Shown here piece after piece: positions 51,077 through 55,908 of a DNA stretch of 64,000 nucleotides. The notes beneath the pieces were generated by a model. That model made no database searches and was not told the origin of the DNA. It saw nothing but the letters and a program-made list of their open reading frames with translations. The DNA is taken from positions 193,606 through 257,605 of the forward strand of contig JAYFPW010000002.1 in the NCBI GenBank assembly GCA_034927475.1, given 5' to 3'. The stretch's first letter is position 1. Each line of letters opens with the position of its first letter. The stretch is from Candidatus Elulimicrobiales bacterium (GTDB lineage: Bacteria > Patescibacteriota > Minisyncoccia > Phycocordibacterales > UBA5272). A program made the position numbers and the translations under genes.

Positions 51077-51445
51077 TTATTCTTCTCTTCTAAACAGTTT
51101 TTTAAACTTTAAGGCAACCTTGTGAGAGATTGTTCTTTTTTTGTCTCTCATCTCGGCAATACTTTGTTCAAGTTTATCTTTTAATTCATCTATTGATGCA
51201 TAAAGATCATCTTTCACAGCTTCCGCAAAAATATTTTTCTTTAAGCCAGAAACTCTGACAGAAGATTTATAAATATCTCCATTGGTTTGTCTATTGTTTG
51301 TTTTTGATAAAACAACTTCTGCAAAAATATTTTTGTCATTAAAAGAATTGGTAAATTTCTCTAAAGCTTCTACAATTCTCTTTTCTGCATAACTTTCAAT
51401 AGCTTCTGTAATTTCTATTTCAACACCTTTAACTTTTATATTCAT
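51077..51445 (-). CDS. hpf: ribosome hibernation promoting factor (RaiA/HPF family)
   Basis: 122 aa; MNIKVKGVEIEITEAIESYAEKRI... Confidence 0.75.
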   Translation of the reverse strand: MNIKVKGVEIEITEAIESYAEKRIVEALEKFTNSFNDKNIFAEVVLSKTNNRQTNGDIYKSSVRVSGLKKNIFAEAVKDDLYASIDELKDKLEQSIAEMRDKKRTISHKVALKFKKLFRREE

Positions 51446-51570
51446 ATTTTTATTTTAAAAGAATTAAAATTTCTAATAAAGTCATTCTGAAAATTTTCTA
51501 TCTTTCCACCTCTATAATACTATTATACCGCAAGAAGACTCTTTATAAAAAACCTTTGCAAAATAAAACT

Positions 51571-51610
51571 AAAATCCTCTGTCGTGGGAGACGCAGAGGA
51601 TTTTAGTTAC
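51571..51610 (-). terminator. strong rho-independent terminator
   Basis: CTAAAATCCTCTG-(CGT gggag ACG)-CAGAGGATTTTAG, about 16 bp with one mismatch, followed by TTTTATTTT on the minus strand. Confidence 0.8.
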
Positions 51611-51620
51611 CTAAAAAGGA

Positions 51621-51734
51621 TTATTTTTTCTTTGCAACTTTTTTCTTTGCAACTTTTTTAACTGTTTTTTTAACAGCTTTCTTTGCTACTTTTTTAGCTG
51701 GAGCTTTTTTAGCAACTTTTTTCTTTGCTACCAT
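51621..51734 (-). CDS. 37-aa Lys/Ala-rich histone-H1-like micro-ORF (not in ORF track)
   Basis: MVAKKKVAKKAPAKKVAKKAVKKTVKKVAKKKVAKKK; terminator directly downstream; no SD. Confidence 0.4.
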   Translation of the reverse strand: MVAKKKVAKKAPAKKVAKKAVKKTVKKVAKKKVAKKK

Positions 51735-51865
51735 AATTTTATTTTAAAAGTATTGAATACTTGAGAGTGCGCTTTTAATTTTTGACTTCGGACCGTAAGT
51801 CTGCCTCTCTACTTTAATTATCTCATTCAAAAAAAATTTTCACAATACTTTTTCAAAAAAAATTT

Positions 51866-51874
51866 GTGGATAAC
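51866..51874. promoter_or_regulatory. perfect DnaA-box 9-mer (TTATCCACA, read on the opposite strand), part of a TTGTGGATAACT 12-mer
   Basis: Exact consensus; the identical 12-mer recurs at 55281-55292. Confidence 0.4.
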
Positions 51875-51917
51875 TTTTTATTTTTTAAAAAATATTTTTA
51901 GAAAAAAATTTTTATTT

Positions 51918-52397
51918 TTATTTATCGTGATACAAATGTTTTTCTGATCCACATTTACATTTGTTTAATAAAAATTCTTTTACATATTCTTCACCGTAAT
52001 CAAAAGTTATTTCTTCGCCTTTAGAAATATTTTTTATCGCTCTCAAAAAAACTCTCTTATTTTTTATTTCACTTTCTGCGTTTGGATCACAAGAATGATT
52101 TGCGTAACGTGCAATATTTTTCTTAGAAGACCCGTCTATATTAAAATCTTTTTCCACAGAAAAAATATACTTATTATCTGGATCTTTCTTTATCTCCTTA
52201 TCAGAAAGAGTCTTTCCTATATATTCAATAATAAGCTGACTTTTTTTAATGTCCTCATCAGCAAAAAGTCCAAGCTCAGCTAATCCTTTTTTTACTTTTA
52301 CTTTTTTGTAATGATGGGCTGGTAATTTTTTTTCTAAATTAAAAAAGCTATTTAAAATTTTAGAAAAGTTTTGGATATTTTTATTTCGCTTTTTCAT
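51918..52397 (-). CDS. SET-domain protein (putative lysine methyltransferase)
   Basis: RYANHSCDPN...FDYGEEY...CKCGSEKH post-SET Cys cluster. Confidence 0.75.
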   Translation of the reverse strand: MKKRNKNIQNFSKILNSFFNLEKKLPAHHYKKVKVKKGLAELGLFADEDIKKSQLIIEYIGKTLSDKEIKKDPDNKYIFSVEKDFNIDGSSKKNIARYANHSCDPNAESEIKNKRVFLRAIKNISKGEEITFDYGEEYVKEFLLNKCKCGSEKHLYHDK

Positions 52398-53016
52398 ATA
52401 GATTTTTTAATAAATTTAGAACACCTTTCTTTTTTGAAACTTGTCTTCTCCTAATAACTAAAATTATTGCAAAGCCTAGTGCGGAAACAAAAACTAAAAC
52501 TGGAAAAGCTAAAGTTACAAAGTTATATTCAGAAAGAGCTAGTATTGAAATGAGTGCTCTGAAAGAATTAATTGCCCAAAGAGAAATTGTTTCCGTATAT
52601 GGATCTGCCCAAGACTTTCTAAGTGTGGCTTGTCCAGCTAAAGAATAAACTAAAACAAGAAGAGCTGTTGAAGCTACTGGAGCTTTAGCTAAAAGCCAAA
52701 GAGGAATTGCTAAAAGTGTTAAAACTAGAAAAACAATATCCACTTTTTTAATATTTTTATCTTCTTCTTTTATTAAACTAAGTATGCACACCACCAGACA
52801 AAGAAGAGCTACAAATAGAGTGGGTAAAGAACCTGCTCCGGCCCCTTTGGAAACTTGTAATAAAAACAAAATAAAAATAATTAAAAACCAAAGCCCCCAA
52901 GTAAAGACATGCGGTTTGGTCTTTTTATCTAAAATATCTATTATATAGAAAGAGTAACTTATAAGTACCAAAATCGCAGCGGTTATCCCTAAAAAACTTT
53001 TAACTAAAATTAGCAT
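52381..53016 (-). CDS. hypothetical polytopic membrane protein (about 6 TM)
   Basis: Hydrophobicity only. Confidence 0.45.
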   Translation of the reverse strand: MLILVKSFLGITAAILVLISYSFYIIDILDKKTKPHVFTWGLWFLIIFILFLLQVSKGAGAGSLPTLFVALLCLVVCILSLIKEEDKNIKKVDIVFLVLTLLAIPLWLLAKAPVASTALLVLVYSLAGQATLRKSWADPYTETISLWAINSFRALISILALSEYNFVTLAFPVLVFVSALGFAIILVIRRRQVSKKKGVLNLLKNLYEKAK

Positions 53017-55274: not shown

Positions 55275-55281
55275 TAAAATT

Positions 55282-55290
55282 GTGGATAAC
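55282..55290. promoter_or_regulatory. perfect DnaA-box 9-mer, second copy of the TTGTGGATAACT 12-mer
   Basis: Exact 12-mer identity with 51865-51876. Confidence 0.4.
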
Positions 55291-55398: not shown

Positions 55399-55908
55399 AT
55401 GTCAAAAGAAAAAAAATCGTTTTTTGAAAGACTCGCTGGGTCTGTAATGGTTGAGGATGAAAATCCTGAAGAGGAAGAAGAGATGGAAATTGAAATCGAT
55501 AGAAAAGGTAGAGGAAAATTTGCTAACGATGAAAGATCTATTGCTGATTTTCGTGGTGAAGATGAATATGAAGAAGAGGACGGAGAGCTTTCTGTGGATG
55601 TTTATCAAACTCCAAATGAAATAATTATAGAAGCAATGCTTGCAGGAGTTAAACCTGAAGATCTTCAAATTTCTATTACTCGCGATATGGTGACGATTAA
55701 AGGAAGAAGAGATGGAAACACTCAAATTTCTGAAGATGATTATTTTTATAGAGAACTTTATTGGGGTTCTTTTTCAAGAAGTATATTATTGCCTCATGAG
55801 ATTGAAATTGAAACCGTTGAAGCTGTAGAAAAACACGGACTTCTTATAATCAGACTACCAAAAATAGATAAAGCGAGACAAGCTAAAGTAAAAGTAAAAA
55901 GTATTTAA
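55399..55908 (+). CDS. Hsp20/alpha-crystallin small heat-shock protein
   Basis: ACD domain; acidic N-terminal extension. Confidence 0.8.
   Translation: MSKEKKSFFERLAGSVMVEDENPEEEEEMEIEIDRKGRGKFANDERSIADFRGEDEYEEEDGELSVDVYQTPNEIIIEAMLAGVKPEDLQISITRDMVTIKGRRDGNTQISEDDYFYRELYWGSFSRSILLPHEIEIETVEAVEKHGLLIIRLPKIDKARQAKVKVKSI

Follow-up and report, generated by a model that had tools for sequence, protein, structure and literature searches.

The window analysed here is the whole 64,000-nucleotide (nt) stretch at positions 193,606 to 257,605 of contig JAYFPW010000002.1 from Candidatus Elulimicrobiales bacterium (assembly GCA_034927475.1), and the element under study is a small minus-strand unit lying between a SET-domain gene and hpf, the gene for a ribosome hibernation factor. 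At its centre is a micro-open reading frame (micro-ORF, 51621-51734) of 37 codons plus TAA, which starts with the ATG at 51734, stops with the TAA at 51621, and encodes MVAKKKVAKKAPAKKVAKKAVKKTVKKVAKKKVAKKK. This Lys/Ala-rich ORF had been picked out in an earlier note made from the sequence alone, and we found it as described. The product is a Lys/Ala/Val peptide with a net charge of +19 over 37 residues and an xxKK repeat of period 4. Its combined Lys and Ala fraction was 0.73, compared with 0.28 for the runner-up and a mean of 0.125 among the 114 ATG-initiated ORFs of 30-60 residues in the whole window. The mean Eisenberg hydrophobicity was -0.41, versus +0.17 for magainin 2, and hydrophobicity analysis revealed no hydrophobic stretch, signal peptide, or transmembrane segment in the 37-residue peptide. 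Because of the charge, the xxKK pattern, and the low hydrophobicity, the peptide is not membrane-active in character, and a type I toxin or other membrane-active cationic peptide was ruled out. Judged from its conservation, the 37-codon ORF is a genuine conserved coding sequence rather than incidental to an RNA, and it is an unannotated gene belonging to a family of polycationic peptides of 13-58 residues found across ultra-small Patescibacteria.

Orthologous units were retrieved in two ways. A scan with the SET alignment, at one genome per species, returned 80 loci (cited below by L numbers, as are the metagenome stretches), and in 20 of the closest Patescibacteria loci a Lys/Ala-rich micro-ORF was located downstream of SET on the same strand, usually at a distance of 200-900 nt. 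These SET-linked micro-ORFs read MAAKKKAAKKVAKK..., frequently with an AKRA ending; the stretch of a 21st SET locus (L008) ends just past the start of the unit. A metagenome scan with the pattern DnaA box-N18-21-TTGT-N14-17-TGNNATANT returned 120 stretches, 34 of which contained a Lys/Arg-rich micro-ORF. About 19 of those 34 were units of the window type, with SET upstream wherever the flank sufficed. A GC-rich group (53-59% G+C) had the same box and promoter followed by a different structured leader of ~105 nt, an ORF of 13-19 residues, a terminator, and secA, and five other Lys/Arg-rich variants were also found (L091, L114, L166, L190, and L197). The remaining matches to the pattern were unrelated promoters, including that of a dnaA gene and those of phage-like families. 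Across the 54 orthologous units from genomes and metagenomes the ORF was intact in every case, with no frame-disrupting indel, and the unit was found in all close relatives; an indel of this kind or the absence of the unit from close relatives had been named in advance as a finding that would count against the gene. The encoded peptides range from 13 to 58 residues, and their length differences always correspond to whole codons or repeats; for example, close relatives of the window organism possess ORFs of 47 and 58 residues that arose by in-frame expansions of the VAKKAPAKK type. Among 65 pairs of equal length we counted 279 synonymous versus 135 non-synonymous codon differences, and the 13-residue peptide MAKKRKAAKKKKR is encoded by four distinct DNA sequences. 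The retained frame and the synonymous excess contradict the suggestion that the ORF might be incidental to a structured RNA. Within the window ORF the codon AAG occurs only after GCA (4/4), thereby limiting A-runs to at most seven; the enrichment of AAG (p = 0.2) is suggestive of translation but is not statistical proof of it.

The peptide matched nothing of note in the collections searched. An hmmscan of the peptide against Pfam-A yielded 0 families at E <= 1, the NCBIfam search gave a chance 9-bit match to the tail of valyl-tRNA synthetase (ValRS) and nothing else, and searching for exact matches to the window peptide and nine of its orthologues gave 0/10 in a collection of 15 billion proteins. 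There is no called gene on record for the window peptide. A protein search with the 47-residue orthologue returned four weak, unrelated matches and nothing more, and a search of the literature on Lys-rich micro-ORFs, nucleoid proteins, or ribosome structures of the candidate phyla radiation (CPR) found nothing.

Upstream of the ORF lies a structured 5' leader whose core (51764-51810, minus strand) was delimited by folding, a covariance model, and covariation. An outer stem pairs GAGAG (51805-51809) with CUCUC (51763-51767), an inner hairpin pairs GACUU (51797-51801) with AAGUC (51784-51788) and displays an invariant GGUC (51791-51794), and an A-rich 3' internal-loop strand completes the structure. 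These two nested hairpins, GAGAG...CUCUC and GACUU-ACGGUCCG-AAGUC, are those noticed earlier. The upstream segment is indeed elevated in GC content, although over ~47-60 nt rather than the 90 nt first estimated: the GC fraction was 0.45 for the leader core and 0.40 for a 60-nt window, compared with 0.10-0.25 for the flanks and ~0.30 overall. Against shuffled sequences the fold of the window leader alone was modest (z = -2.0), but the comparative data are supportive, and every orthologue folded separately gave the same outer stem and inner hairpin. A covariance model (R1) built from 18 leader sequences matched exactly once per unit; the rest of the window and the other Patescibacteria SET loci searched gave no match. 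Covariation was measured on 34 sequences, 26 of them distinct. In the distinct sequences, 82.7% of the leader cells were in standard pairs, versus at most 49% when the partners were slid; 5/7 of the inner-helix pairs were changed on both sides, and 0/500 shuffles reached the covariation score. Because the model was used to fit the alignment, these figures lean towards structure. In the inner arms the sequence varies (GACUU/AAGUC, GAUC/GAUC, GACC/GGUC, GAUCGU/GCGAUC, and GGUUGU/GCGACC), with the GGUC loop and the outer GAGAG/CUCUC constant across the aligned leaders. Since the hairpin arms covary rather than keep one sequence, a DNA operator is disfavoured as the explanation of this inverted repeat, and the comparative evidence indicates that the upstream segment is a conserved structured RNA. 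Peptide and RNA features are therefore both under selection, so the earlier framing of the locus as either a peptide or an RNA was wrong. The leader matches no Rfam family: the search proposed for the GC-rich segment was run on 51300-52100 with cmscan at E <= 10 and gave chance matches far below the gathering scores, the whole window at gathering thresholds contained three tRNAs only, and five orthologous loci gave no match at E <= 1.

Between the leader and the start codon is an AU-rich initiation region without a Shine-Dalgarno (SD) sequence (51735-51763, minus strand), which includes a clade-specific small hairpin, AAGUAUUCAAUACUU (51748-51762). The near-palindrome reported for this part of the locus exists as AAGTATTCAATACTT (51748-51762) but is kept in the nearest relatives only (the window, L001-L003, L110, and L172); L187 has a degenerate copy, L007 lacks it, and the sister clade has TTTGCATAA in its place. 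The near-palindrome was consequently rejected as a core element. A 28-codon TTG-initiated ORF over the leader (51744-51830) was likewise rejected because its start lies upstream of the inferred transcription start. An SD-like motif preceded only 2/50 long ORFs (at least 150 residues) in the whole window, and many window ORFs have a TATAAT-like -10 box 5-10 nt before the ATG, so that the organism appears, from these sequence features, to be largely reliant on leaderless or SD-independent initiation. A structured leader of ~75 nt is unusual here because the genome hardly uses SD sequences and its genes are apparently leaderless.

The transcript is closed by an intrinsic terminator (51558-51608, minus strand) comprising a stem at 51567-51608, a CUCCC loop at 51586-51590 within a conserved CUCCCA, and a U-tract at 51558-51566. 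A terminator hairpin had been noted at this position and is present, with 18 pairs and one bulge instead of 16 pairs; its folding energy was -24.7 kcal/mol (z = -7.0), and 0/200 shuffles folded as well. The sequence 3' of the hairpin is UUUUAGUUUUAUUUU, as expected for Rho-independent termination; the criteria of a simple terminator scanner missed the 51567-51608 hairpin. Every orthologous ORF was followed by a terminator. The window shares an identical 38-nt hairpin with L001, L002, L003, L007, L172, and L183, that of L110 differs by one substitution, and over ~35 related units the stem covaries freely around a constant CUCCCA(Y) loop. Of 12 occurrences of CTCCCAY in the window, this is the sole one in a hairpin loop, which rules out CUCCCA as a general terminator feature of the genome. 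No conserved TGGGAG partner for the loop was found within 2.5 kb. An anti-SD mimic, in the form of CUCCCA or CCUCU, is unlikely because only 2/50 window genes have an SD sequence.

The unit begins with a DnaA box and a promoter. The box sequence GTTATCCACA (51865-51874, minus strand) is a perfect match to the consensus TTATCCACA, with 9/9 positions of the 9-mer agreeing at 51865-51873, and it lies 19 nt upstream of the -35 element. Among the 20 units ascertained through SET, which were retrieved without reference to the box, AGTTATCCACA occurs once and in the same place in 20/20, including L024 and L027 with their differing leaders. Essentially no further boxes with one or fewer mismatches were found within 600 nt in the 54 units, so the box is isolated and not part of a cluster. 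GC skew has the same sign on both sides of the locus, with no switch in the window, and a replication origin (oriC) was rejected because the box is single and the skew does not switch. A promoter scan identified a sigma-70-type promoter (51817-51845, minus strand) with a -35 hexamer TTGTGA at 51840-51845, a 17-nt spacer, and a TG-extended -10 element, TGaGATAAT, at 51817-51825, which places the inferred transcription start near A51810. In an 18-sequence alignment the TTGT of the -35 element and the TG and A-T-A-n-T of the -10 element were invariant columns, and the spacers varied. The aligned upstream regions share a layout of GTTATCCACA, 19 nt, TTGT, ~16 nt, TGn(G/C)ATA(A/C)T, ~6 nt, (A/C)GAGAG, and the GGUC hairpin, followed by the A-rich strand, CUCUC, ~25 AU-rich nt, and ATG. 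Box and ATG were 130-144 nt apart in the 18 units with a window-type leader, and in L024 and L027 the distance was 151 nt. There is another perfect AGTTATCCACA box at 55281-55289 (minus strand), between the ValRS stop codon (55274) and hsp20 (55399-55908, plus strand); it is in reverse orientation, just upstream of TTGATA, a hexamer resembling a -35 element for hsp20, and is also kept in L001, L002, L003, and L007. By their sequence context, the two boxes suggest a small DnaA-box regulon in the window clade.

The upstream neighbour of the unit encodes a SET plus post-SET lysine methyltransferase of 159 residues (51918-52397, minus strand; Pfam SET, 1.3e-24), and its stop codon is 43 nt from the DnaA box. 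The best solved relatives of this protein are KMT2C, NSD, and ASH1L (E ~1e-14), and its catalytic and post-SET residues are invariant. A bioreactor metagenome has yielded an identical copy, and the relatives of the protein come from Patescibacteria/Paceibacteria metagenome-assembled genomes. In all clade A and B loci with enough flank, SET was directly upstream of the peptide unit on the same strand with no terminator between, and the two are possibly co-transcribed by read-through; the arrangement makes the SET enzyme a protein that may modify the peptide. Overlapping the SET start by 17 nt is a gene for a 211-residue multi-pass membrane protein (52381-53016, minus strand), suggestive of an operon or translational coupling with SET; this gene is kept in L007, L110, and L183 only and weakly matches a VPXXXP-CTERM sorting domain. 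Nitrobacteraceae SET proteins (L036-L079, from Bradyrhizobium, Nitrobacter, Rhodopseudomonas, and Tardiphaga) carry C-terminal tails of 60-150 residues rich in Lys, Ala, Arg, and Glu, and at two Nitrobacteraceae loci (L038:3000-3860 and L076:3261-3890) a separate H1-like, Lys/Ala-rich protein of 209-286 residues is encoded immediately upstream of SET; these independent cases speak for a link between SET and H1-like sequences. A more distant relative (L020:4001-4805) keeps the synteny of the genes for ValRS, SET, HPF, peptidyl-prolyl isomerase, Fmt, and Def.

Downstream lies the gene for a short HPF/RaiA-family ribosome hibernation factor of 122 residues (51077-51445, minus strand; Pfam PF02482, 2e-15; TIGR00741, 1e-16), followed 3' by a cyclophilin gene. 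The hpf gene has a promoter-like site of its own after the terminator (51549 to 51522; TTTATA-16-TATAAT, 10/12 positions), separate from the site at 51845 to 51817 that serves the peptide gene, which bears out the description of the unit as standalone. The order peptide-hpf recurs in L001, L003, L007, L110, L172, L183, and L187 and in L197, which belongs to an unrelated lineage and reads peptide-hpf-x-secA. The downstream neighbour in nearly every lineage outside the window clade is secA. Both hpf and secA carry their own promoters and are often apparently leaderless. Because secA and hpf lie downstream across lineages, the hpf/secA locus is the ancient context of the unit and SET is an upstream neighbour specific to one lineage; linkage of SET to the peptide as a general rule fails outside one lineage. 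The invariant DnaA box, the CUCCCA terminator loop, and the conservation of the SET and hpf/secA gene neighbourhood all go beyond what the earlier note had recorded.

There is good support for the gene and for its promoter, structured leader, and terminator, and the gene is autonomous and probably highly expressed; its function, including a nucleoid role for the peptide, we infer. We give about an even chance to its encoding a DnaA-controlled, polycationic, nucleic-acid-binding microprotein, possibly methylated by SET. Transcription from the TG-extended -10 promoter, with its single DnaA box 19 nt upstream of the -35 element, would start at about A51810, so that the 5' end of the RNA would coincide with the foot of the conserved two-tier hairpin displaying GGUC; an unstructured AU-rich stretch would then lead to an SD-less AUG, 37 codons would be translated, and the CUCCCA-loop terminator would close a transcript of ~250 nt. 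DnaA at the box might couple expression to the replication cycle, the 5'-terminal stem might shield the mRNA from 5'-end-dependent decay, and the two invariant loops might be sites at which a trans-acting factor binds or the peptide itself exerts feedback. With its charge of +19, the peptide would be expected to bind DNA (or RNA) electrostatically, coating or neutralising nucleic acid like a histone-H1 tail or a protamine, and in the window lineage the adjacent SET/post-SET enzyme may methylate its lysines, as Chlamydia cpnSET does with Hc1. We regard as speculative and quite doubtful a bolder version, in which the locus forms a minimal bacterial "writer plus histone-tail" pair, with a peptide, gated by DnaA so as to follow replication, coating the tiny Patescibacteria chromosome, SET methylation of its lysines tuning DNA compaction or gene expression, and the GGUC and CUCCCA loops giving feedback control of an abundant polycation.

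Several observations weigh against a DnaA-controlled nucleoid peptide. Profile searches linked the peptide to no known nucleoid protein, and the length range of 13-58 residues, which fits a non-specific polycation, gives no clue to the target. The oldest conserved neighbours, hpf and secA, point to translation or secretion rather than to the nucleoid. Binding of DnaA to the box and its effect on transcription are predictions from sequence and position. Adjacency to SET is restricted to one lineage and could be inherited synteny, with many peptide units having no SET gene nearby. In L020 the SET and hpf genes are ~38 nt apart with neither a Lys-rich unit nor a DnaA box between them, and because the synteny is otherwise retained there, the peptide unit can evidently be lost or relocated. 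Protection of the mRNA alone would leave the invariant outer stem and loops unexplained.

The attachment to hpf and secA, the most widely conserved neighbours, in several deep lineages would fit a product that is a basic microprotein associated with the ribosome or rRNA (like Thx, bS22, bL37, or eL41) or an RMF-like protein that partners the short HPF, the leader being an autoregulatory mimic of an rRNA site as in ribosomal-protein operons; we consider this possible, if unlikely. Tiny Lys/Arg-rich ribosomal peptides are known in other phyla, the adjacent 122-residue HPF is of the short form, and feedback by RNA-binding proteins typically involves a structured, gene-specific leader whose loops are invariant. 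However, a span of 13-58 residues with repeat expansion is unlike ribosomal proteins with fixed contacts, no ribosomal family of NCBIfam or Pfam was matched, a DnaA box would be unexpected on a ribosomal gene, and the leader sequence differs among lineages, so that there is no single rRNA mimic. The same invariant loops could instead belong to a functional or dual-function RNA, an abundant small RNA acting through GGUC and CUCCCA from the slot of the raiA motif, with the ORF secondary. Consistent with this idea are the presence of invariant loops on covarying stems at both ends of the RNA, the invariant sequence of the outer stem, the conservation of the clade-A terminator over 38 nt (seven loci identical, with one substitution in L110), and a genomic position that parallels the raiA motif (PMC10861870). 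Nevertheless, the central third evolves as a protein (frame kept, synonymous excess, whole-codon repeat expansion), no Rfam family including raiA was matched, no complementary partner for CUCCCA was detected within 2.5 kb, and peptide, box, and promoter persist in the GC-rich and other lineages without the same leader and loops, all of which make an RNA with a subsidiary ORF quite unlikely.

It is also conceivable that the ORF is a cis-acting leader peptide or attenuator, in which translation of poly-lysine codons controls read-through into hpf or secA in the manner of SecM, MifM, or trpL. Lys-rich, A-rich coding runs can slow ribosomes, and in most lineages secA is the gene that directly follows the unit; genes for protein localisation are known to be preceded by arrest peptides (PMC12992588). 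Here, though, a very stable terminator follows the ORF with no evident antiterminator, the downstream genes have their own promoters and vary by lineage (hpf, secA, and others), the 13-residue versions are too short for arrest in the exit tunnel, and the peptide has no secretion or membrane signal. We find control by attenuation highly improbable, and assignment to the trpL/SecM/MifM type was rejected on account of the strong terminator, the separate downstream promoters, and the variable downstream gene.

To return to the nucleic-acid-binding polycation, comparison with known systems offers partial likenesses. Chlamydia cpnSET interacts with Hc1 and Hc2 and methylates Hc1 (Murata 2007, reviewed in PMC3980110), and archaeal Go1-SET methylates MC1-alpha (PMC3980110). 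Hc1 and Hc2 are likewise Lys/Ala-rich polycations, from a small-genome bacterium with a SET lysine methyltransferase in the same organism, but Hc1 is much longer and has a defined Pfam domain, whereas the peptides of the window family have 13-58 residues and match no profile. Membership of the Hc1/Hc2 family was thus rejected by profile (0 Pfam families at E <= 1), although the composition agrees. By analogy with Hc1, and from the adjacency of SET, the peptide is a candidate for binding or condensing DNA and for methylation by SET. To our knowledge, neither a DnaA box nor a structured leader nor a CUCCCA terminator loop has been described for hctA or hctB, and we know of no adjacency between the chlamydial histone genes and their SET gene, whereas SET is the immediate upstream neighbour in the window. 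The H1 C-terminal tail, the protamines, and the AlgP KPAA proteins share with the peptide a low-complexity (A/V/P/T)-K-K repeat, high charge, and expected non-specific nucleic-acid binding; the window peptide differs in being free-standing, with no globular domain, and in having a period-4 xxKK repeat rather than KPAA or SPKK, so the likeness is one of composition only. Assignment to the AlgP type was rejected, as there is a single APAKK and no tandem KPAA. The proposal of an Hc1- or AlgP-style nucleoid peptide therefore survives in the H1-tail-like Lys/Ala composition and not in family membership or repeat type.

Similar in size and charge are Thx, mycobacterial bS22 and bL37, eL41, and RMF, and the window unit is linked genomically to hpf; it differs from them in having no profile match, variable length, repeat expansion, and a DnaA-box promoter, and membership among the small basic ribosomal proteins (Thx, bS22, bL37) was rejected from the profile searches and the unfixed length of 13-58 residues. 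In 66% of cases the raiA-motif RNA of Bacillota and Actinomycetota, an independent transcript, precedes raiA, and it has an association with secA as well (PMC10861870). Like this RNA, the window unit is transcribed independently, from its own promoter to its own terminator, in a slot just upstream of raiA/hpf, with secA often nearby, but the window unit has no covariance-model match, contains an ORF under purifying selection, and is structured over only ~47 nt. The leader hairpin also resembles the 5' stabilising stem-loops of the ompA/aprE type in starting ~1 nt from the inferred 5' end. A stem at the 5' end of an mRNA is a geometry that blocks 5'-end-dependent RNases. In contrast to those leaders, the GGUC loop and the outer-stem sequence are invariant here, which argues for more than generic mRNA protection. 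The dnaA, nrdAB, and sda promoters likewise have a single consensus DnaA box by the promoter and not an oriC-like cluster; in the window the gene is that of a Lys-rich microprotein, DnaA control is predicted, and a second conserved box stands upstream of hsp20.

Patescibacteria make up a large share of bacterial diversity, and little is known of their DNA packaging and growth control. Gene callers appear to have overlooked this family, and Pfam, NCBIfam, and Rfam have no entry for it, yet few intergenic features of the locus are as strictly conserved as this unit, all the way from promoter box to terminator loop. Should the peptide prove to be a polycation of the nucleoid or the ribosome, it would be a missing piece of the housekeeping set of a minimal cell. 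If SET methylates it, the pair would offer a simple case, with the two genes linked, in which a chromatin-like protein undergoes lysine methylation in bacteria that are free-living or episymbiotic; this would bear on an old problem, the role of SET proteins in bacteria that are not pathogens. With its DnaA box, the promoter would also count among the first regulatory circuits to be recognisable in the phylum.

Some minor observations concern the more divergent members and matches of the promoter pattern. The GC-rich group of Patescibacteria comprises L083, L084, L085, L095, L102, L119, L124 (for example, L124:6584-6890), L126, L129, L158, L163, and L097. In its leader the outer stem is GCAUCG...CGAUGC, CCUAGG forms a hairpin, and GGUCGAA is unpaired; the leader is followed by the ORF for MAKKRKAAKKKKR, a conserved AUCCUCUYGAAR element, the terminator, and an apparently leaderless secA, in that order. 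A divergent SET-linked lineage (L024:5039-5352 and L027:5039-5355) has the box, an extended -10 element, a TTGATT -35 element, and a Lys-rich ORF encoding MAAKKKAAKKVAKKTVKKVAKKKTAAKKKR, with secA directly downstream, together with an unrelated leader and a terminator loop of CCCAAA. The pattern also matched a marine family (L098, L103, L107, L138, L145, L165, L168, L180, L189, L194, L198, L200, and others) in which the box and promoter precede an SD-bearing ORF of ~74 residues (MVLPEDS...NHYD(G/S)VVPVM); this family is possibly of phage origin and is unrelated to the Lys-rich unit.

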